Source: Clostridia bacterium (GTDB lineage Bacteria > Bacillota > Clostridia > CAKSNL01 > HGM11501). From it: a stretch of 64,000 nucleotides of DNA. The DNA is taken from assembly GCA_900766735.1 (NCBI GenBank), contig CAAFWO010000040.1, forward strand, positions 7,896 to 71,895, in the 5' to 3' direction. The position numbers and the translations under genes are program-made. Shown in pieces: positions 10,786 through 62,094 of the stretch. Within the stretch, counting starts at the first letter, position 1, and every line of letters begins with the position of its first letter. The notes under the pieces are model-generated. The model did not search any database. It was not told the DNA's origin and saw nothing but the letters and a program-made list of their open reading frames with translations.

Positions 10786-10817
10786 AAAAAAACTCTGTAA
10801 TCATTACAGAGTTTTTT
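10786..10817 (+). terminator. rho-independent terminator of the V-ATPase operon
   Basis: CTCTGTA-ATCAT-TACAGAG hairpin flanked by A6 and T6. Confidence 0.75.
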
Positions 10818-10930
10818 ATGTTTTAAATTATGCAAAAAATCAATTTTGTGCTAAATCTTGACAAAGTTTACCATGGATGCTACAATAATTACAGTCGATC
10901 TTTGATTGGCTGCGATTGTGAAAAGCTTAG

Positions 10931-11098
10931 AATGGTCAAGGGTACAAGGATAACAACGGAAATATATGGAAAAAAGATCAGCTTCATAAAGATCATTGGG
11001 ATATAACCGACAGGCATGGCAATAAGATTAGAGAGGTGGATTTTAACGGAAATGAAATTTGGCCAAATGGACCTAAAAACAAAAATAAGTTGCCGTAA
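10931..11098 (+). pseudogene. start-less 3' remnant of a polymorphic-toxin C-terminal domain (…YKDNNGNIWKKDQLHKDHWDITDRHGNKIREVDFNGNEIWPNGPKNKNKLP*)
   Basis: 56 in-frame codons with no start (stop at 10928-30 immediately upstream); His/Asp-rich DHWD…HGN motif reminiscent of HNH/His-Me-finger type toxin tails; sits at the left edge of the AT-rich island directly before a small ORF. Confidence 0.4.
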
Positions 11099-11720: not shown

Positions 11721-12227
11721 TTGCATAAAAGATATTTTATTTCAAAATATAATCCAATGTTGTGGTCTAAAGAAGGGATATACCTTGGAGACGAATGGAC
11801 AAGCATAGGGGATTTAAGGAAAACAGGGAAATCGCTTATCAACGATCAAGAATATTTGGGCGTTGAACAAAGGTATATAGATTGTGTTTTGTATTTAATG
11901 AACAAAAGTAATATAGATTTTTTATATATTGCTGATTTGGCAATGTCTGGTATATCAGATGATGTGCGAATACATAATTTATATGATCATAACACAATGA
12001 ATTTTTACAATAAAATCGCTGAAGGAATGAGGGTGGATTCGGGTAACATTAAATATGTAATGAGGCTCATGTTGCGTTGTAATATTGATTGCCGCTTGTA
12101 TTCACGCAAAAAGCATTTCATTGTAATTGTATCAGACGAAATGTATATGCATGTTATATGCGCACGGTTGTTTGACACAGATATAAAAAAGGTTGAAAGC
12201 CTGGGACTATTTGTTCTCAATGAGTAA
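11721..12227 (+). CDS. hypothetical protein, paralog A of tandem pair
   Basis: 168 aa; shares motifs with next ORF: W-T-x-I-x-D-[IL]-x-[RK]-T, EYLM, [KR][IL]AEG..VD..I..V..LMLR..I.CRLY[SA]R..HFI, HI[I]C. Confidence 0.55.
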   Translation: MHKRYFISKYNPMLWSKEGIYLGDEWTSIGDLRKTGKSLINDQEYLGVEQRYIDCVLYLMNKSNIDFLYIADLAMSGISDDVRIHNLYDHNTMNFYNKIAEGMRVDSGNIKYVMRLMLRCNIDCRLYSRKKHFIVIVSDEMYMHVICARLFDTDIKKVESLGLFVLNE

Positions 12228-12233
12228 AGAGAA

Positions 12234-12725
12234 ATGAAAATGAACTATAAGAAGTATATCTTATCCCGCAATGGTTTGGAACATAATGATAATTGGACTG
12301 AAATAAGTGATATCGGAAGAACATTTGGCGGCGAAGTATTGACAGATGAGATCTATAGCAAGGGAGAGGATTGCTATGTGAGAGCTATGGAATATTTGAT
12401 GGAAGTCAACGGTATCCATTCATTACGCATAGGCGAACTTAGTAAGTTTGATAATGATTATGAAGAAAAATACAACTCACTTTACAGTGAAAGTATATTA
12501 TCGTTAAAAATGAGGCTGGCAGAAGGGTATGAGGTTGACAAAAAGTATATCGGAGATGTGGTAAAATTAATGCTACGCGGCGATATATGGTGCAGGCTGT
12601 ATGCACGTAATGCTCACTTTATTGCTGATGTTGGATACGATTTTTCTATACATATAATATGTAAAAAAATGAAAAAAAGAGAATTCAAAAATATTCAGGC
12701 TATTATGTCAAAATCCATAAAATGA
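12234..12725 (+). CDS. hypothetical protein, paralog B of tandem pair
   Basis: 163 aa; collinear similarity to 11721..12227 over the whole length. Confidence 0.55.
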   Translation: MKMNYKKYILSRNGLEHNDNWTEISDIGRTFGGEVLTDEIYSKGEDCYVRAMEYLMEVNGIHSLRIGELSKFDNDYEEKYNSLYSESILSLKMRLAEGYEVDKKYIGDVVKLMLRGDIWCRLYARNAHFIADVGYDFSIHIICKKMKKREFKNIQAIMSKSIK

Positions 12726-12768: not shown

Positions 12769-13203
12769 ATGAATATGCGTGGGAGAAGGTGGCAAAATAA
12801 GATGATAGAGAGGCATGAGATGGTTATTAGAGTATTGCCGATCGTTATGCTATGCATAATTTTTTGTGGTTTAATTGTTTGTTCTACGAAATTAAAAAAC
12901 AAAAACACAAATGATATAAAAATTGGTAAAAATATAACTATTGAAATTCTAGATGGAGAAAACGTGAGCGCGGATTATCTTAGAAATATTTTAAAAGGAA
13001 CAACAGTTGAATCGAATCCATTTTTTATAATGATGGATGACAAAGATCTTGAAAGGTTAATTGAATATATGGAGGAAAATAAGTATAAAATAGGGGCTGG
13101 GACATATACGATTAACCAAGGTTGGAGATTTGATAATGGGGAGTTTGTTACATGGAGTGGGGAAAAAAGAAAAATTTTTGTCTTTGAAAAGGCTATTGGT
13201 TAA
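12769..13203 (+). CDS. hypothetical N-terminally membrane-anchored small protein
   Basis: 144 aa; one TM helix (VLPIVMLCIIFCGLIVC) then hydrophilic domain; start may be an internal Met. Confidence 0.4.
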   Translation: MNMRGRRWQNKMIERHEMVIRVLPIVMLCIIFCGLIVCSTKLKNKNTNDIKIGKNITIEILDGENVSADYLRNILKGTTVESNPFFIMMDDKDLERLIEYMEENKYKIGAGTYTINQGWRFDNGEFVTWSGEKRKIFVFEKAIG

Positions 13204-14810: not shown

Positions 14811-15857
14811 TTGTTAAATATCGTCGGCGAAAGCGTTGACGGGGTGAACTATACATACTCAAGAGGGACGGACCTTTTGGGCTACACCTCAAGCCTTGGT
14901 GAAACGGTGTATTACCGCACGAACGTTCATGGGGACGTTAAGGAGCTTGTCAACGTTTTCGGGGAGAGTCTGGAGCGCTATGACTACAACGCATACGGTG
15001 CGGAGAATGAGGATTACAACCCTTTCCGCCGTATGTTTGGGAAAAAGAACGTGCATAATCCTTTCCGCTATACGGGAGAATATACCGACTCCGAAACGGG
15101 ACTTGTGTACCTTCGTAACCGAATGTACGACCCGGAAACGGGACGTTTCATAAGCGAGGACACACACTGGAACATTGACAACTGTATATACGGCGATGCC
15201 ATAGACGGCAACAGACCGACAACGCCTGACATCGGGGCAATTATCCAATCAAACAATCTATATGTATACTGCATGGGCAATCCTATCATGTATGTTGACT
15301 ATGAGGGAGAGTTTGTAATTTCCACAGCCTTAATCGTTGGAATTTCCATTGGAGCGTTGATAGGAGCTGGAATAGGCGCTTATGTTGGCTATCAAGTAGC
15401 GGAAAAAGTCGGAGTAGAGGAACCTGAACGATGGAAATTTGTTGTTGGATATGGGTTGGGAGGAGCATTAATTGGCGGTACTATTGGCGGGGTGATTGGA
15501 TATGGCATACATGCCGCAATAGGAGTAGCAGCTGGAAGTAGCGCAACGGCTGTATCAATCCAAAATGCAATATCTAATGTTGATGCATCAAGAATTAATC
15601 ACATATTAAATGGGTCTAAAGGAAACGATCATATGTGGGAAAAGCTTATGAATAAGGTTGATTGGAACGGCGTTAGATATTATATACAGGAGACAATGAA
15701 AACAGGTGAAACGATTTTGAAGAATAAATATGTAAACAACGATGTAACTACTATGGTCTATGAAACGGTACAAGAATATAACGGTGTAACTGTTAAGGTT
15801 ATTTATAATGTTATACATGGGATTGTCAATATAACCGATGCTTATGTGGTTTCATAA
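14811..15857 (+). CDS. 5'-truncated RHS/WapA-type toxin module: end of RHS core (RYTGEYTDSETGLVYLRNRMYDPETGRFISED…NLYVYCMGNPIMYVDYEGE) + glycine-zipper TM segment + ~110-aa C-terminal domain of unknown type
   Basis: TTG start assigned by ORF track; in-frame sequence continues upstream to a stop at 14766 (…TNQKYSLLNIVGESVDGVNYTYSRG), i.e. no N-terminal RHS body. Classic RHS core-end motifs are present. GxxxG-rich segment ALIVGISIGALIGAGIGAYVGY…GYGLGGALIGGTIGGVIGYG. C-terminal domain contains INHILNGSKGNDHMWEKLMNKVDWNG. Confidence 0.6.
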   Translation: MLNIVGESVDGVNYTYSRGTDLLGYTSSLGETVYYRTNVHGDVKELVNVFGESLERYDYNAYGAENEDYNPFRRMFGKKNVHNPFRYTGEYTDSETGLVYLRNRMYDPETGRFISEDTHWNIDNCIYGDAIDGNRPTTPDIGAIIQSNNLYVYCMGNPIMYVDYEGEFVISTALIVGISIGALIGAGIGAYVGYQVAEKVGVEEPERWKFVVGYGLGGALIGGTIGGVIGYGIHAAIGVAAGSSATAVSIQNAISNVDASRINHILNGSKGNDHMWEKLMNKVDWNGVRYYIQETMKTGETILKNKYVNNDVTTMVYETVQEYNGVTVKVIYNVIHGIVNITDAYVVS

Positions 15858-15934: not shown

Positions 15935-16456
15935 ATGACTGATGTAAATAAAAACATCGAAAAGATCAGGCAAATCAAAAGTGAAAAAAAGCGGAACAGG
16001 GAGGCAATTTCATTTCTGTGTGACATTGTTGCAAGTCAAAATGACGATGAGCTTAAGAAAAGCTACGAGAATATAATTTATTTTAATATCGACATGTTCC
16101 TCGAAGCATTGGCAAGAAAGAATAAGGCTGATACAACTGAAATGGTGTTTTCAATGCTTGCACAGGAATTACTTAATGAATACACTAATTGGCTGTTTTG
16201 GAAGAGAAAAGAGTTAAATGCTGACAACATAGATGTCTGCATGTCCGTTGCACAGACGGTTTTTTATCTGTCATTTAAATACCGGGAAGTTGTAGATGTA
16301 ATGGAGTATGTATTAAAATCTCCTAATATAACACTGCGGCAAAGGCAGTCGGCATACGATTATCTTTGCTCGGACAATCCGGAAATTACGGGGTATCTCG
16401 GTGAAGAAAAAATTGAAAAATATAAAAAAGAGCGCCTTAAGTATGCCGGAAATTAA
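15935..16456 (+). CDS. hypothetical alpha-helical protein, candidate cognate immunity protein
   Basis: 173 aa ORF starting 78 nt after the toxin module stop, same strand. Confidence 0.45.
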   Translation: MTDVNKNIEKIRQIKSEKKRNREAISFLCDIVASQNDDELKKSYENIIYFNIDMFLEALARKNKADTTEMVFSMLAQELLNEYTNWLFWKRKELNADNIDVCMSVAQTVFYLSFKYREVVDVMEYVLKSPNITLRQRQSAYDYLCSDNPEITGYLGEEKIEKYKKERLKYAGN

Positions 16457-16680: not shown

Positions 16681-17724
16681 CTATTTTTCCGGAATCTCGC
16701 GGCTTCGCATGATCTCTTTTTTTGCTTTTGAGCTATACTGAGCATAGAATTTATGCGTGACCTCGATATTTTTATGCCCCATGAGCTCGGCAACCATTTT
16801 AATGTCCACGCCTTCCTCCAGGAGGGTGCACGCAAACGTTCTCCTAAGCGCGTGAGGACGTGTTTTATCCTTATTTGTGATTCCGGCGGCAAGGCAATAT
16901 GTTTTAAGATTATGCTCAACGCTTGAAATCGTGAGCCTGTCGCCGTTTCGTGAAACGAATAGGGCAGAGGTGTTATAATTTTGCTCTTTTCGCCATTCGA
17001 GATACTCCAAAAGCTCATTTTCGACCTGAACCGGCATAAAAATCTCGTCCTCATTTCCGCCTTTTCGGGTGACTGTGAACGACGATGTTTCAAAATCAAT
17101 GTCCGAAACGTCAAGATTTACCAGCTCAGAAACACGAACACCTGTTCCTAAATAGGTGAGATAGAGCGCAACATCGCGCTTTTTGCGGTTCAGATATTCT
17201 GTCAGAAGGCGACCCTTAAAGTATTTTTCGCCGTTTAGTATCACATCCATAAGCCGCATAGTCTCCTGGAGAGTGAGAGGCTTTTTGATCTTCTGAACAA
17301 GCTTATTCATATCAACTTTAAGTGTGATATTCTGCGAAATTTTGTCAGTCTTATAAAGATATGAAAAGAGACTCCTGAGTGACGACATTTTGCGGTTGAT
17401 GCCGAAAGAGGAATTTCTGTGCGTGCGGCTGTAGGGCTGGCCGTCAGCGTCCGTATATGTCAGCGTGTATTGCTTTAAGTATGATTTATATTCCAACAGA
17501 TCGTCAACGCTGATTTGCTCCATATCGTTTTCGGAAAATTCTTCAAGAGAGTCGTATGGGAATTTTTTTGTCACGAGCAGGAAGCTTAAAAATATTTTAA
17601 TGTCTAAAGCAAAGGCGAGCTGAGTGTTGACGGATTCACCGTCATAATAATAGTCGATAAACCTGAAAACAAAGTCAGGCAGTTCCGACAGATAATTTCT
17701 CAGTGTATTTTGCTTATCAGCCAT
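16681..17724 (-). CDS. tyrosine site-specific recombinase/integrase (XerC/XerD-like)
   Basis: 347 aa; C-terminal catalytic region with RPHALRRTFA…LMGH…Y signature (R-H-R-H/Y of tyrosine recombinases), N-terminal core-binding domain. Confidence 0.85.
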   Translation of the reverse strand: MADKQNTLRNYLSELPDFVFRFIDYYYDGESVNTQLAFALDIKIFLSFLLVTKKFPYDSLEEFSENDMEQISVDDLLEYKSYLKQYTLTYTDADGQPYSRTHRNSSFGINRKMSSLRSLFSYLYKTDKISQNITLKVDMNKLVQKIKKPLTLQETMRLMDVILNGEKYFKGRLLTEYLNRKKRDVALYLTYLGTGVRVSELVNLDVSDIDFETSSFTVTRKGGNEDEIFMPVQVENELLEYLEWRKEQNYNTSALFVSRNGDRLTISSVEHNLKTYCLAAGITNKDKTRPHALRRTFACTLLEEGVDIKMVAELMGHKNIEVTHKFYAQYSSKAKKEIMRSREIPEK

Positions 17725-56091: not shown

Positions 56092-56124
56092 AAAAAAGAG
56101 CTGAGCATTGCTCAACTCTTTTTG
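56092..56124. terminator. bidirectional hairpin terminator overlapping the stop of the GLUG-protein gene
   Basis: AGAGCTGAGC-ATT-GCTCAACTCT flanked by A7/T5. Confidence 0.6.
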
Positions 56125-59100
56125 CGTTTATGTTTTTTAACTAAAGTTACTGTCACGAATACTGCCGCCGCCAGAATGAGGACGATCACAGCCGCCGTGA
56201 TGCATTTTGACAAAAGCGCCGATTCATATCTCACCGCGATCGTGACCTCGGGACTGTCAACAGTGAACTTGACATATTTTCCCCTGTTTGAGGATTTGAT
56301 CTTCTCCCACTTGCCGCCGTTTTTATAAAAGACGGTCGCCTTGTCTTTGTTCTCGTTAATTATCCTGAACTTATATTCTCCGTCCTCGGGAACGGAAGCG
56401 CCCATAAGCTTAATGCTGTAGACCTCTGTCTCGCCGACTGCGCCGCCGGGACCTTCCTCATTTAACTCGCTCGCTCGTAACAGGGTATCTGAGGTGAACT
56501 CGCCTTCTGCAAGGGCAATTGCAAGCTTTCCGGTGTTGTTTCTCTCCTCGCTCTCCAAAAGCGTTACCCAGTTATTATATTCAGCTTCGATCGAGAGATC
56601 GCTTGAAACCGTTCCCTCGCCGATGTCCTCCCACTCTCCGAAGCTTCCCTTCTTTTCGGGAACCTCCGGCATCTTGATCTTGCCGTACGGCTCGCCGTAT
56701 TTTATAAGCTCCTCAGCGACCTTTTCGCCGTCTGCATAGAACCTTGCATAGAAGCTGATAAATTCGGCCGGTACATTCATTTTTGAAAGCTCATCGTAAG
56801 TCGCCGGCTCAGCCTTTCCTTTATAGCTGATTCCGTCAAGTGCGCCGAGACCCTTATCCAGGTACTTGCAGTCCCTCACTATTTTCACGTTTTTCTTATC
56901 TCCGGCAATGCTTCCTGTGTATTCGTCACCGGTAACGTCCGCGATCGCATAGCATTCGCTGACAGAATCCGTGTAGCCGGCCACACCGCCGACGTATGAC
57001 GCGCCTTCGGCGTTGCACTTAGCATAATTTTTCTTGAGCACGGACTCTGAGTATCCGGCGATTCCGCCGACATATGAGCCGGACTCGCTTAACACGTCGG
57101 CATATCCCTCGCAGGAATATATAACGCCGAGGCTTAAGTTTCCGGCGATTCCGCCCATACAATTCTTTTTGCCGTCGATCTTTCCGCGGTTAACGCATTC
57201 AGATACAATGGCTTTTGTCTTATAGACAAAGTTTAAGTTTGACGGGCGCTTGAAATCGTCCTCCGGGTCGGAGGTGTACTCGATCGCGACAGCGCCGGCG
57301 ATTCCGCCTCCGTTTCTGTCCGCATTTATCTTGCCGGAATTTTCACACCTTGTGACTTTTCCGGATACGGCGCTCGATATTTCGGACTCCGAAACGTCGA
57401 CGAAGTAGTCGTCAATATCGAAATTGAGATATTTCTCTTCGTTTTCGGTGATCGAGTCGATTATAAGGTTCATTATGAGGTCGAACTGATCCGAAAGGTT
57501 CTGAACATCGTTTCTGATCGTCTTTCTGTCCTCTTTGAATTTATCCTTCATTTTTGAAAGCTCGTCGGAGATTCCGGTCAGCGTGTCAAAAAGTCCGTCT
57601 CCCTTTTCCTGAAATTCCGTGCCAAGCTTTTTAAGCTTCATCGGCCCTGCGTCCGCAATGTCTTTCGCAATGTCGGAAAGCTTCGAAAACGCGTCCGAAA
57701 GGTCTGAAAATGCATAGCTCATCGCATCGGAAGCTTTTTTAAGCTCTGCGTTTGCCGCGTTGAGCTGCTCGGTCATATCGTCGGCATAATCGCCGAGCTT
57801 TTTATGAAGCCCTGAAAGCGAGTCTGCCAATGAAGCGCACGCCTCCGACATGGCCTTAAACCCTGCCATCAGGCAGTCAAGTGAATCGTCAAGATAATCG
57901 GCCGCCTTTTCAAAATCGTCAAAATCGACTTCAGTATTGCTGATTATAGTATTTAAGCTTTCGCTCATGGCGTTTATCGCGTCCGCAACCGGCGAAAGAG
58001 CTTTGAGCATCCGGCCGAGTGCGTCGGTAATGCCCTCGATGTCCTTAATATCGCCCGATGAAATTATATCGCTTAACGTTTTTATTGCCTTATAGATCTG
58101 ATTGTGCGCCGAGAGAAGCTTTTCGATCGCGCTTTTAAGCTCGCTTGCCGCCTTTCTCACATCGCTCTTATTTTTTACCGTCACGGCGGAAGACAGGCGG
58201 CGCATTGCCTTCTGGGCATAGCTTGTCGCGCTCTTCAATTCCTTTGAACCGTCGGCAAGAGTCTTGAGTGCGTCAGTCATCAGGTCGATCTCCATATCGA
58301 TGTCCGGCGTGTAAAGATTGATTTTAGAAAGTGCCGCATTTAAGCTGTCGGAAGCCGAAACGAGCGAATCAGCCGAGGAGGAAACAAGATCTAAAACCTC
58401 AACGCTGTCGTCGATCGCCGTTGACAATATGGCAGAATAAGTGTTAAGCTCATCGATATTTGTATCGATAAAGTCATCCGTCATATCGAGCATATCCTTG
58501 GCATATCCGCGTGCGATGCCTGAATAATCCGAAATATTGTCAAGGTAAGCCTCGATATTGTCCGCCGCAGAATCCGAATCGTTTATAAGAGTGTCCGTCA
58601 TTTTGTTAAAGGTCTCAAGCTCGCGTTTAACCTTTTGAAGCGTGCTCTCCGAAACGTCCAAAAGCACATAAGGCTCTGCCTGACCGACGATTCCGCCGAC
58701 ATCCTTTCGACCCATGATCTCGCCGCTGTTCTTACAGCCCGTTAAAAGCCCGGACTGCCTTCCGGCGATACCGCCGACGTTATAGCCGACATGCTGATAG
58801 CCGACCGTGCCTTTGTTTTCACAGCCGGATATAACGCCCTTTGAAAGACCGACGATTCCGCCGATATCATAAAAGCTCTTAAGGAGCCCTTCTTCGGTTT
58901 TATCGTCTTTTTCTTTATTGATTTTTACGTTTTCAACGACGCTTTCAATATCCGTGTCAAGCACCGATGTGCTCTTTTTATCAGCCTCAACAGTGTTGAT
59001 GTTGCCGAGATTTTTGCTCGAAGCAATATATCCGTCGTTATATCCGGCGATACCGCCGACGGAATTCTCGCCGACAATGACGCCGTTAAACGTCGCGTCG

Positions 59101-59597
59101 ACCACTTTTGCGCTGTCCGTGCATTTTCCGGCGATTCCGCCGATCGCGGACGCGCCTTTCACCGTGCCGGAGTATGTCGATGAAATAATCTCGCCCGAGT
59201 TCACGCCGGCGATCCCGCCGATATAGCAGGCCGTGCCGCCCGGCGCGATATTTCCGGTTATATTAAGCTCCTTAACGACCGCGCCCTTTTCAAGATACCT
59301 GAAAAAGCCGAGGTTTGAACCGTTTTTCGAAATATTGACTCCGCTTATCGTGTGCCCGTTTCCCAAAAATGTGCCGGAAAATGTCGGTATCGGGGTAAAT
59401 TCATCACCCGAAAAGTCAATATCCGCGGTCAGGTTCACCGTCTTTCCGATTGACCAGGAATCAAGCGTGCATTTTTCCGCAAGCCTTAAAAATGCTGATT
59501 TGTCCGAAACCGTGATAATGTCTCCCTCGGCATATAAAGGAGTAGCCGAAAGCACAAATATTATCAAAAGTAATAAAGATATTATTTTTTTATACAT
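56112..59597 (-). CDS. large membrane-anchored surface protein: signal peptide, N-terminal GLUG-motif repeats, ~450-aa alpha-helical/coiled-coil region, second GLUG-repeat block, C-terminal TM anchor + basic tail
   Basis: 1161 aa. Repeated GGIAG-type units: IGGIAGVNSGEI, IGGIAGKCTD, VGGIAGYNDGYI, IGGIVGLSKGVI, VGGIAGRQSG, VGGIVGQ; later GGGIAGAV, MGGIAGNL, VGGIAGYSES, VGGVAGYTDS. Central low-complexity Ser/Asp/Leu/Lys-rich helical region. C-terminus ITAAVIVLILAAAVFVTVTLVKKHKRKKS. Confidence 0.7.
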   Translation of the reverse strand: MYKKIISLLLLIIFVLSATPLYAEGDIITVSDKSAFLRLAEKCTLDSWSIGKTVNLTADIDFSGDEFTPIPTFSGTFLGNGHTISGVNISKNGSNLGFFRYLEKGAVVKELNITGNIAPGGTACYIGGIAGVNSGEIISSTYSGTVKGASAIGGIAGKCTDSAKVVDATFNGVIVGENSVGGIAGYNDGYIASSKNLGNINTVEADKKSTSVLDTDIESVVENVKINKEKDDKTEEGLLKSFYDIGGIVGLSKGVISGCENKGTVGYQHVGYNVGGIAGRQSGLLTGCKNSGEIMGRKDVGGIVGQAEPYVLLDVSESTLQKVKRELETFNKMTDTLINDSDSAADNIEAYLDNISDYSGIARGYAKDMLDMTDDFIDTNIDELNTYSAILSTAIDDSVEVLDLVSSSADSLVSASDSLNAALSKINLYTPDIDMEIDLMTDALKTLADGSKELKSATSYAQKAMRRLSSAVTVKNKSDVRKAASELKSAIEKLLSAHNQIYKAIKTLSDIISSGDIKDIEGITDALGRMLKALSPVADAINAMSESLNTIISNTEVDFDDFEKAADYLDDSLDCLMAGFKAMSEACASLADSLSGLHKKLGDYADDMTEQLNAANAELKKASDAMSYAFSDLSDAFSKLSDIAKDIADAGPMKLKKLGTEFQEKGDGLFDTLTGISDELSKMKDKFKEDRKTIRNDVQNLSDQFDLIMNLIIDSITENEEKYLNFDIDDYFVDVSESEISSAVSGKVTRCENSGKINADRNGGGIAGAVAIEYTSDPEDDFKRPSNLNFVYKTKAIVSECVNRGKIDGKKNCMGGIAGNLSLGVIYSCEGYADVLSESGSYVGGIAGYSESVLKKNYAKCNAEGASYVGGVAGYTDSVSECYAIADVTGDEYTGSIAGDKKNVKIVRDCKYLDKGLGALDGISYKGKAEPATYDELSKMNVPAEFISFYARFYADGEKVAEELIKYGEPYGKIKMPEVPEKKGSFGEWEDIGEGTVSSDLSIEAEYNNWVTLLESEERNNTGKLAIALAEGEFTSDTLLRASELNEEGPGGAVGETEVYSIKLMGASVPEDGEYKFRIINENKDKATVFYKNGGKWEKIKSSNRGKYVKFTVDSPEVTIAVRYESALLSKCITAAVIVLILAAAVFVTVTLVKKHKRKKS

Positions 59598-59613: not shown

Positions 59614-62094
59614 CTATTCGTCGTCTTCGTCATCATAATAGTCATCGGAATCGACGTCATAATGTCCGTCCTTGTCACCGGCGCTTCCGCTGAGTAGATT
59701 TGCGTCAACCTCACCCGAAATGATTCCGTAAAAGCTTCCCTCAACTCTGCCGTTGACATAGCCCGAAAGCTTGCCGTTTATCACGTGGTTACCGGAAAGC
59801 GAAAGCTTCTTGCCGTGAAGGCCGACCTTAAATGCCGTCTTATCAATGATCTTATCGCCAAGCAGGAGAAGCTGGGGTAAAATTCCCATAACAAGCACCA
59901 TTGATATTATCGTTCCGCGCCCTAAGCATGTTCCGATCGATGCAATCGCGCAGTCTGTCGACATAAGGCCGATGATGATACCGGCTGATGCTAAAATAGT
60001 TCCAGATGTAAATATTGTCGGGAACGCAAGGCTTAAGGTCTTTATTATCGCGTCCTTTTTGTCCATCGTCTGTCTTAACTCGGTATAACGGTTCGTGATA
60101 ACTATCGCATAGTCGATATTCGCACCCATCTGAATCGAGCTTACGACCAAATAGCTTAAGAAGAACATATGATTTCCCTCGATTATCGGGAACGAGAAGT
60201 TTATCCATACGCTACCTAAAATAACGATGATAAGTATTATCGGCAGTCCGGCCGACTGGAAAGTGAAAAGAAGAATTATCACGACAAACAGCGCTGAAAG
60301 AATGCTGATAAGGAGATTATCTTGCCCGAATGTCGATGATAAATCGTAGTCGTTGGTTGAGTTACCGCACAAAATAACGTCGTCTCCGTAATACTTTGTC
60401 GCCTTATTTCTGATCGTTTCAAGAAATGCAAACGTTTCCTCCGTCTCCTCAGGAAGATTCAGTTCGAGCACAATTCTTGAATAATTCTTGCCCTTAAGCT
60501 GTTTTTTACCGTCTTCAAGGTCGGAATTGATTTCGTCAAGGTCGGAGCGCAGATCATCATCCAATGTGATCGTACCGTTATCGACATCATCGTACAAAAA
60601 TTCAAACATATCTATTAGCGGAACCTCGTAATTGTCGATACCGCCGATAATCTTTCCGTAATTTTCATCGTCAACGGCATATGCCGCATAGAGAAAACGC
60701 ACAAGCTCCACATCCATATCGGTAAGCTCTGAAAATGTTCTTGGACTGAGCTTGTCGGCCAGCATATAGCCGTCCATCGCCTCGGTGCTCGAAAGCCCGG
60801 TCACAGTGTCGATCTCCGGAAGCTTCGACAGCTCCTCGGAGAGCGCCTTTTCGTCGTCATATCGCCCGGTCGGAACCAAAATGGCGACAACGTTGGTCGG
60901 CGCGAAAGTCTCCGATATCATCTGCTCTGCGATCTGCGAGTCGTTCTTTCTCACTGTCGATAAAAGTGTGTAGCTGTATGCATAGGGACACATATTGGAA
61001 AGAATGAATGCAATCACCAAAAGTCCGGCAAAAATGCAGGGTGCGATCACCTTAAGCTTGATGACGATCCTTCCCCACGCGTCGATATTCGGCACAAAGC
61101 TTCTGTGGTGTGTCTTATCGATCTTATCACTGAAGGTATATATAAGTCCCGGCATAAACGTGAACACGCAAAGAATGCTTATGATTATCGCTTTGATAAG
61201 GATAATACCCATATCAAAACCGATCTTGAAGTGCATAAACATCATCGCAGCGAGTCCGGAAAGCGTCGTCAGGCAACTGCCGGAGATCTCCGGAACGGCC
61301 TTGGAAAGCGCCGCGACAACAGCTTCATAAGGCTCTTTTGTCTCACGCTCTTCTGTGTAGCGATGGCAAAGAATGATCGCATAGTCAATAGCGAGCGCCA
61401 GTTGGAGTATGACGGCAACGGAATTTGAAACAAACGAGATCGTTCCGAACATAAAGTTTGTTCCTTTATTAATGAGCGCCGCCATACCGAAGGTCGCCAG
61501 CATGACCGGGACCTCCATATATGTTTTCGATGTGAAAAGCAAAACCGCAATGATAATAACACATGTTATTACCATAACGATGTTTATTTCGTTGTTGATT
61601 CGGTTCGCCTTTGTATCTCCGAGCTCCGCCGAAATGTAATAATCATATCCCCCGAGATAATCCTCGGCATTCTGAAGCGCTTCGGATGATATTTCGTCGT
61701 CCTCGTCCCCCTCGAACGTGAGAGTGAAAAGCGCCGACGACTCGTTATAGTGCTTATCCGTGTCGTCAAACGCAACGGACTTTACACCGTTAAGATCCGC
61801 GAGTTTATCCGAAAGCTTTTCAGCGCTCTCGTATGATATATTGTCGACCATAATTTTTGCGGTAGCATATGTAGTGAACTCCTCTTCCATAATGGAAAGT
61901 CCGCGCCTGGTCTCCGTCTCCTCATCAAGATAGTCGGTAAGCTTGTTGTCAACCTTGACCCAGCCGGACGATATTATACAAAACACAGCTATTATGGCAT
62001 ATATAAAATAGAACGCTTTTCTTTTATCAACAATAAACGCCGCAACCTTTTCAAAGCCTTTCGGATTATCCTTGGTCTTCTCCTCCATAAGCAC
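59614..62094 (-). CDS. MMPL/RND-superfamily membrane transporter (two 6-TM bundles each followed by a large extracytoplasmic domain) with acidic C-terminal tail
   Basis: 826 aa; two hydrophobic blocks with SSD-like arrangement; C-terminal …DVDSDDYYDDEDDE. Confidence 0.75.
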   Translation of the reverse strand: MLMEEKTKDNPKGFEKVAAFIVDKRKAFYFIYAIIAVFCIISSGWVKVDNKLTDYLDEETETRRGLSIMEEEFTTYATAKIMVDNISYESAEKLSDKLADLNGVKSVAFDDTDKHYNESSALFTLTFEGDEDDEISSEALQNAEDYLGGYDYYISAELGDTKANRINNEINIVMVITCVIIIAVLLFTSKTYMEVPVMLATFGMAALINKGTNFMFGTISFVSNSVAVILQLALAIDYAIILCHRYTEERETKEPYEAVVAALSKAVPEISGSCLTTLSGLAAMMFMHFKIGFDMGIILIKAIIISILCVFTFMPGLIYTFSDKIDKTHHRSFVPNIDAWGRIVIKLKVIAPCIFAGLLVIAFILSNMCPYAYSYTLLSTVRKNDSQIAEQMISETFAPTNVVAILVPTGRYDDEKALSEELSKLPEIDTVTGLSSTEAMDGYMLADKLSPRTFSELTDMDVELVRFLYAAYAVDDENYGKIIGGIDNYEVPLIDMFEFLYDDVDNGTITLDDDLRSDLDEINSDLEDGKKQLKGKNYSRIVLELNLPEETEETFAFLETIRNKATKYYGDDVILCGNSTNDYDLSSTFGQDNLLISILSALFVVIILLFTFQSAGLPIILIIVILGSVWINFSFPIIEGNHMFFLSYLVVSSIQMGANIDYAIVITNRYTELRQTMDKKDAIIKTLSLAFPTIFTSGTILASAGIIIGLMSTDCAIASIGTCLGRGTIISMVLVMGILPQLLLLGDKIIDKTAFKVGLHGKKLSLSGNHVINGKLSGYVNGRVEGSFYGIISGEVDANLLSGSAGDKDGHYDVDSDDYYDDEDDE

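Follow-up and report, generated by a model that had tools for sequence, protein, structure and literature searches.

The toxin domain Ntox21 corresponds to the CdiA-CT of Enterobacter cloacae, and two immunity families, Imm-Barstar and Imm41, have been assigned to it (Zhang et al. 2012, PMC3482391). A toxin of the Ntox21 type cleaves the 3' end of 16S rRNA (PMC12582261; summarised in PMC13460014). Li et al. (2022, PMC9424270) assigned the solved E. cloacae CdiI (4NTQ_B) to the sPC4L fold and described new FdL-Imm families, whose partners in S8-PTS/ABP systems are toxins of the Ntox21 and Ntox21-like kinds. Here we analyse two adjacent genes, open reading frames (ORFs) 1 and 2, in a stretch of 64,000 nucleotides (nt) from a Clostridia bacterium (GenBank assembly GCA_900766735.1, contig CAAFWO010000040.1, positions 7,896 to 71,895 of the forward strand); this whole stretch is called the window, and coordinates are counted from its first letter. 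ORF1 and ORF2 are most probably orphan immunity genes of a large unnamed family that would act against Ntox21-type toxins.

The pair consists of the following genes.

11721..12227, plus strand: ORF1, the 'A' paralog, 168 amino acids (aa), TTG start
12234..12725, plus strand: ORF2, the 'B' paralog, 163 aa, ATG start

Both are read on the plus strand with a spacing of 6 nt, and they are called as genes in five related public contigs, each time paired. An initial annotation made from the letters of the window had described the two as collinear paralogs, which BLASTP bears out: the alignment is collinear, nearly full-length and far above chance (48/153 identities, 31%; 55% positives; one gap; E = 1e-25). 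The shared blocks that it quoted are also present, namely WTSIGDLRKT in ORF1 and WTEISDIGRT in ORF2, KIAEG..VD...LMLRCNIDCRLYSRKKHFI and RLAEG..VD...LMLRGDIWCRLYARNAHFI, and HVIC and HIIC, except that EYLM occurs in ORF2 only and reads LYLM in ORF1.

Word-index homology searches with each ORF returned five close relatives only, and the family looked tiny at that stage. An exhaustive profile search recovered 1081 clusters, formed at 50% identity, with a threshold of E <= 1e-3; at E <= 1e-10 there are 335. Members nearly always have 155-185 aa and are distributed over many phyla, including Bacillota, Bacteroidota and Actinomycetota. The hidden Markov model (HMM) of the family matches both ORF1 (E = 2e-51) and ORF2 (E = 2e-45). 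An alignment of 115 members has the consensus xRITKYNPxxRDxxGxYxxDEWTSxSDIGK...YLxxExxY...LxLRExxWCxL...FGYDYYMYI...GLFVE, in which E49 is invariant and K9, Y10, P12, W26, D31, Y45, Y52, L118, R119 and D140 are conserved in at least 90% of the sequences. As the initial annotation had supposed, this family has no name: Pfam and NCBIfam scans gave no match for either window protein, none of the 115 members reaches a model of either database, and a profile search of all PDB sequences produced a spurious match only (E = 0.43). Members in NCBI records (Listeria booriae, Chitinophaga caeni, Gabonibacter chumensis, Babeliales and Mycobacteriales) are named 'hypothetical protein', and a role in immunity would therefore provide a testable function for a large family that these databases leave without one. 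The family domain is also found fused to a SUKH immunity domain (P0053), to DUF7683 and to HTH_3. The domain itself has no SUKH (SMI1/KNR4) match, and SUKH is present only as the extra fused domain in P0053.

The evidence that points to immunity comes from the genes directly upstream of family members. A metagenome scan with a sub-alignment yielded 80 loci, those most similar to the canonical 'FGYDYYM/DEWTS' subfamily, in which ORFs were called and family members located by HMM. In front of many members stands a large ORF, in some cases of more than 3300 aa, which either stops 0-10 nt before the family gene begins or runs into it by 8-11 nt. These upstream proteins have a C-terminal domain in common (...KLGYKKTNYYSHGQPVY..KYITPDVDSHNGGVWK....LGSK.TR.GTYD..L.RIGD, followed by the stop), and Pfam Ntox21 (PF15526) is recognised in 24 of the 33 tightly adjacent upstream proteins (best E = 2e-31). 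When an Ntox21 HMM built from the upstream tips was run on six-frame translations, 34 of the 80 loci proved to have an Ntox21 domain whose end overlaps the family gene or is at most about 13 nt away from it, with gaps of mostly -8 to +13 nt and on the same strand. A further locus (L050) has Ntox21 at 97 nt, which brings the total to 35 of 71 assessable loci, nine of the 80 being too short upstream to judge. Hence the immunity-type role that the initial annotation had proposed is supported, as roughly every second assessable locus has the homolog directly downstream of an Ntox21 tip. The same immediate downstream position was observed at loci L009 and L093.

The proteins that carry Ntox21 are of several kinds, with RHS repeats and DUF6531 (L055, L033), with filamentous haemagglutinin repeats (Fil_haemagg_2; L035), a PT-HINT protein, and others with unassigned N-termini (L040, L041, L052). 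Since the carriers are diverse and the Ntox21 tip is constant, the family tracks the toxin tip and not the delivery module, which is the hallmark of a cognate immunity gene. In Chitinophaga caeni the gene directly preceding the family gene encodes a 153-aa Ntox21 protein, and the locus also has Imm33, Tox-ART-HYD1 and DUF4279; in Listeria booriae the family gene is one of about a dozen small genes in a row behind a 3157-aa protein. Proteins of the family are acidic, with a median isoelectric point (pI) of 5.06 and a net charge of -6, whereas the Ntox21 tips have a basic pI of 9.7. Among 150 neighbours in the loci that lack Ntox21, a Pfam scan showed neither an enzyme nor a pathway that recurs; repeated occurrences are limited to DUF4279 and miscellaneous housekeeping genes, and DUF4279 is an immunity family in the classification of Li et al. 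(PMC9424270).

These observations also bear on the possibility that the family is an RNA- or ribosome-directed factor or enzyme, for instance one protecting or repairing the 16S rRNA target, which merely co-occurs with Ntox21. Several charged and aromatic residues are near-invariant across phyla, the family domain is fused to two S1 RNA-binding domains on Streptomyces plasmids, and many members are located away from any toxin, all of which would suit such a function. However, a family gene placed directly after the toxin tip, often overlapping it and whatever the delivery module, is an immunity-gene signature, and the acidic family facing basic Ntox21 tips and the SUKH fusions argue in the same direction. 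Neither Foldseek nor the HMM searches revealed similarity to a known enzyme, an assigned enzymatic function being what the initial annotation had named as evidence against its own proposal. We therefore consider a factor of this kind quite improbable.

Family members are single in 79 of the 80 metagenomic loci, so tandem copies are not typical of the family. The only metagenomic locus with several copies (L050:6929-8800) has three in tandem behind a 205-aa Ntox21 ORF, with a 31-aa Ntox21 fragment between family copies, and looks like a homogeneous polyimmunity array.

AlphaFold2 models, built with the family alignment, predict with confidence that ORF1 and ORF2 have a common alpha+beta fold (ORF1: predicted local distance difference test (pLDDT) 94.4, predicted template modelling score (pTM) 0.90; ORF2: pLDDT 93.5, pTM 0.89), and the element order b-a-b-a-a-b-a-b-b-b-a(-b) is common to both. 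Foldseek comparisons of the two models with the PDB gave nothing at E <= 0.001 (best E about 0.1-0.2, template modelling (TM) score about 0.2), and the ORF1 model likewise had nothing at E <= 0.001 in the viral BFVD. TBP, GGDEF and phosphagen-kinase structures were rejected as relatives, as these Foldseek matches are weak (TM about 0.2).

One of the closest described systems is the E. cloacae immunity protein CdiI(ECL) (PDB 4NTQ chain B), which counters the same toxin family, is small and cytoplasmic, and is encoded directly after the tip. It nevertheless represents another fold and family, with no PDB sequence match or Foldseek match to the proteins described here. Imm41 and Imm-Barstar are likewise immediate downstream neighbours of Ntox21 tips and occur in polyimmunity loci as well. 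Imm41 (PF15592) was rejected as the identity of the family: the window proteins do not match it and none of the 115 members reaches its threshold, with one sub-threshold match at E = 0.0054. Its motif is 'SF, W', whereas KYNP, EWTSxSDIG and FGYDYYMY characterise the family studied here. Imm-Barstar was set aside too, as the Pfam Barstar model matches neither the window proteins nor any of the 115 members. FdL-Imm1 to FdL-Imm4 (PMC9424270) are alpha+beta proteins, paired with Ntox21 and not in Pfam, and are built from two ferredoxin-like units, the first of which is interrupted by the second between its helix 1 and its strand 2. The element order of our models, which is all that was compared, is compatible with ferredoxin-like units. 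These four families belong to BetaH/S8 systems of Bacillales and Actinobacteria, in contrast to the RHS, haemagglutinin-type and other carriers in many phyla that go with the present family; a S8-PTS/ABP context was looked for at the Priestia megaterium plasmid match and none was found. The family may still equal one of FdL-Imm1-4, as both its link to Ntox21 and its alpha+beta architecture would fit.

In a neighbour-joining tree ORF1 and ORF2 fall into one clade of eight members, with ORF1, P0005 and P0006 as A proteins, ORF2, P0002 and P0007 as B proteins, and P0008 and P0010 in addition. Outside the orthologs, the nearest relatives (L093, L094 and L095) have about 41-43% identity, and the two genes stand there in the A-then-B tandem too. 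This, together with the saturated synonymous divergence (dS) between the paralogs, indicates an old duplication. At L093 the gene order is RHS core end, Ntox21, ORF1-like, ORF2-like: the upstream gene ends 1 nt before A and encodes ...LRNRMYDPETGRFISEDTHWNMENCIYGD..., an RHS core end (TIGR03696) followed by a glycine-rich segment and a complete Ntox21 tip. Its RHS core end has 86% nt identity over 88 nt with an orphan RHS cassette in the window. The arrangement at L093 suggests an ancestral module composed of RHS-Ntox21, A and B. Ntox21 itself was not found by a six-frame HMM search of the 64-kb window and of the related loci L001 and L003-L006, and for this reason we class the pair as orphan immunity genes.

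The A-then-B order and the tight spacing are preserved at three levels of divergence, i.e. in the window and L003-L005, in L001/L006, and in L093/L094. Such constant linkage favours some coupling of the two genes, and it raises the question of whether A and B form a two-subunit immunity module, as a heterodimer or with B as an adaptor or stabiliser of A, instead of acting as independent genes. The order and spacing are kept where the toxin is present (L093) as well, the pair stays contiguous while neighbouring cassettes shuffle, and B has lost KYNP and the acidic charge, yet is under purifying selection (omega about 0.16). Single copies at 79 of 80 metagenomic loci indicate that one protein normally suffices, and we regard a two-subunit module as unlikely. 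B may neutralise a variant toxin or act jointly with A. ORF1 keeps the family motifs KYNP, EWT, D31, Y45, E49, Y52 and LR, and A-type proteins are mostly acidic (pI 5.1-5.6).

Selection was measured by the method of Nei and Gojobori between the window and L001/L006, two lineages without the toxin. The saturated dS makes a ratio of nonsynonymous to synonymous divergence (dN/dS, omega) uninformative for the paralogs, and orthologs were used instead. For A they have dN = 0.13-0.14, dS = 0.80-0.81 and omega = 0.16-0.17, and for B dN = 0.17, dS = 1.09 and omega = 0.16, with an overall range of 0.15-0.17 for both genes; closer ortholog pairs give omega = 0.07-0.5 on very few changes. Both genes are thus maintained by purifying selection even without a toxin. 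Values as low as these do not support gene-wide diversifying selection, which the initial annotation had read from the low identity of the paralogs; the divergence of the two copies goes with an old duplication.

The same values are relevant to the idea that the pair no longer functions and is a decaying remainder of a toxin locus since lost. Ntox21 is absent from the window and its close relatives, truncated toxin fragments are found in the surrounding array, and each of the two proteins departs from the family consensus at several of its conserved sites, as a decaying locus might. The frames are nevertheless intact in 6/6 related loci, omega is 0.15-0.17 at dS of about 0.8-1.1 between two toxin-less lineages, and the AlphaFold2 models of both proteins are confident, so that we hold decay to be highly improbable. 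That purifying selection should keep an immunity pair without its toxin in gut Clostridia is what one would predict if orphan immunity defends against the toxins of neighbours.

From the genomic linkage we infer binding, neutralisation and a protective role as follows. The family of about 170-aa cytoplasmic alpha+beta proteins would neutralise Ntox21 domains, which are BECR-fold RNases of the E. cloacae CdiA-CT type that cut 16S rRNA near its 3' end. Each protein would bind a single incoming Ntox21 domain, keep it away from the ribosome and, as orphan immunity, protect the cell against Ntox21-armed neighbours. The ancestral order was presumably an RHS toxin with an Ntox21 tip, then the A gene, then the B gene. 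In the window the toxin is absent, and the A-B block would survive as a cassette among immunity-like genes and orphan toxin fragments. A is best seen as the putative canonical binder, and B as a diverged copy that may have a variant toxin target or a partner role.

Several observations weigh against orphan immunity to Ntox21. There is no cognate toxin within the 64 kb, and the role of the pair there rests on homology. An adjacent Ntox21 was not found by the six-frame HMM in 36 of the 71 assessable loci, and even the resulting rate of 49% may not apply family-wide because the 80 loci are biased towards the canonical subfamily. No toxin domain was recognised at loci L010, L011 and L012, from Gabonibacter chumensis and gut metagenomes, where the gene has a mobile-element context, nor is there a toxin in the context of the Priestia plasmid member. 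The near-invariant polar residues K9, Y10, D31, E49, R119 and D140 are unusually many for an immunity protein. ORF1, in the allele of the window, is near neutral (pI 6.95), B-type proteins are neutral to basic (pI 6.9-9.4), and ORF2 and the B type lack the K-Y-x-P motif that is 92-98% conserved in the family.

A bolder form of the hypothesis is that the family is a structurally new countermeasure to Ntox21 which acts at the ribosome or 16S rRNA and does not only cap the toxin, with A and B having become, in this Clostridia lineage, an obligate module kept after toxin loss. If this were true, the polar residues and the S1 fusions would mean action at or on the ribosome or 16S rRNA; we think it unlikely. 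Orphan immunity, in comparison, would extend the set of immunity families for the Ntox21 16S rRNases by one that is structurally distinct. The kind of system is well known, and the gain lies in the annotation and in a candidate new immunity fold and not in a new principle. Interest would be raised somewhat by the lack of any related structure, by the conserved but unexplained A-B module and by the fusions to S1 domains on Streptomyces plasmids.

Orphan rhs/cdi arrays of toxin-immunity cassettes and acquired interbacterial defence (orphan immunity) clusters occur in gut bacteria. The surroundings of the pair resemble them in being a low-GC (guanine plus cytosine), strain-variable mix of immunity-like genes and truncated toxin C-termini with a recombinase at the border, and differ from them in that the 64-kb window has no full-length RHS gene. 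The island extends over about 10.8-16.5 kb, with a GC content of 0.34-0.39 compared to about 0.45-0.51 around it, the fall from 0.51 being seen over 10-16 kb. It follows a V-type ATPase operon (subunits I, A, B and D) and contains or borders on these features in addition to the pair.

10787..10817, plus strand: intrinsic-terminator-like hairpin with a 14-bp stem and a T run, which ends the V-ATPase operon and forms the left island border
10858..10886, plus strand: promoter-like site, TTGACA-17-TACAAT with a TG extension, 11/12 matches, a sigma-70-type consensus match only
10931..11098, plus strand: toxin-like C-terminal remnant (...HKDHWDITDRHGNKIREVDFNGNEIWPNGPKNKNKLP and stop), no start codon, absent from L003/L004
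11116..11685, plus strand: 189-aa ORF, family without match, an independent cassette
12769..13203, plus strand: 144-aa ORF, no family match, in L005, absent from L003/L004, relocated in L001/L006
13319..13870, plus strand: 183-aa ORF with an N-terminal hydrophobic segment, no family name, absent from L005
13923..14273, plus strand: YD/RHS-repeat fragment, weak match to TIGR01643 YD_repeat_2x (16.6 bits, cut-off 15.8, E = 0.0085)
between the YD-repeat fragment and the RHS C-terminal cassette, plus strand: 150-aa membrane ORF
14811..15857, plus strand: orphan RHS C-terminal cassette, TIGR03696 RHS-associated core end (65.7 bits, cut-off 32.5)
15935..16456, plus strand: 173-aa ORF, no family match, directly after the orphan RHS C-terminal cassette
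16681..17724, minus strand: tyrosine recombinase (Xer/integrase-like), Phage_integrase 2.4e-32, XerS-like below the equivalog cut-off, right island border

The polymorphic-toxin neighbourhood assumed in the initial annotation is accordingly real, with an RHS C-terminal cassette, a YD-repeat fragment and a toxin remnant, but it is made up of orphan modules only. A full-length RHS or other large toxin gene was not found in the 64-kb window, whose large ORFs encode ClpB, a P-type ATPase, MMPL, UvrD and V-ATPase subunits. All features between the V-ATPase operon and the recombinase lie on the plus strand. No plus-strand terminator-like site follows the promoter-like site until about 16245, and the whole cassette array may hence be one transcript, which the site at 10858..10886 could drive as judged by its match to the consensus; the total of promoter-like sites in the region is not above the expectation from shuffled sequence.

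Loci L003, L004 and L005 are from the same species as the window (98% identity in the ATPase genes) and have the 189-aa ORF and the pair in common with it. L003 and L004 are otherwise 96-98% identical to the window (blastn), and the three loci differ from it in the remnant (absent in L003/L004), the 183-aa ORF (absent in L005) and the downstream genes. In L001/L006, an uncultured Clostridia metagenome-assembled genome from a human gut sample, the pair is a contiguous 1-kb block of 78% identity, while the 189-, 144- and 183-aa cassettes are found at other positions, the 189-aa homolog being downstream of the pair. A pair that stays contiguous in blastn comparisons amid shuffling neighbours indicates that it is one unit in a shuffled array.

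The remnant at 10931..11098 was rejected as an Ntox21 domain, having no match to Pfam or to the Ntox21 HMM, and the 189-aa ORF is possibly an immunity gene for it. The latter was also rejected as a third diverged member of the family (hhalign probability 1.9%). In the orphan RHS cassette the core end is accompanied by a glycine zipper and by a tip that weakly resembles Ntox35 (E = 0.0023, below its cut-off), and the 173-aa ORF behind it is, by position alone, probably its putative immunity gene. A homolog of the 183-aa ORF lies directly upstream of a family member at L042:9410-9985, an unrelated metagenomic locus, and has a similar C-terminus (...ISFEPSPPIQNTFK); the 183-aa protein may thus be another recurrent cassette of such arrays. 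Far from the island, a 1160-aa ORF at 56112..59597 on the minus strand has no Pfam match at E <= 1e-5 and adjoins the gene of an MMPL-family transporter (59614..62094).

Two further contexts of the family were noted. On plasmid NZ_CP108868.1 of Streptomyces sp. NBC_00829 (L097:3992-5506) a 504-aa protein has the family domain as its N-terminal ~165 aa and two S1 RNA-binding domains towards its C-terminus, joining a putative 16S-RNase immunity domain to RNA-binding ones; the gene lies within a Tn3-family transposon (transposase and resolvase), beside a SUKH+HEAT protein, and 33 Streptomyces plasmid records have the family domain. In the loci from Gabonibacter chumensis and gut metagenomes (L010, L011 and L012) the last 4 nt of a gene for a multi-pass membrane protein of 135-149 aa are shared with the family gene, in a mobile-element-like stretch (HTH_17, AAA_25, DUF6371 and DUF1016) beside a RloB/AAA_21 pair.

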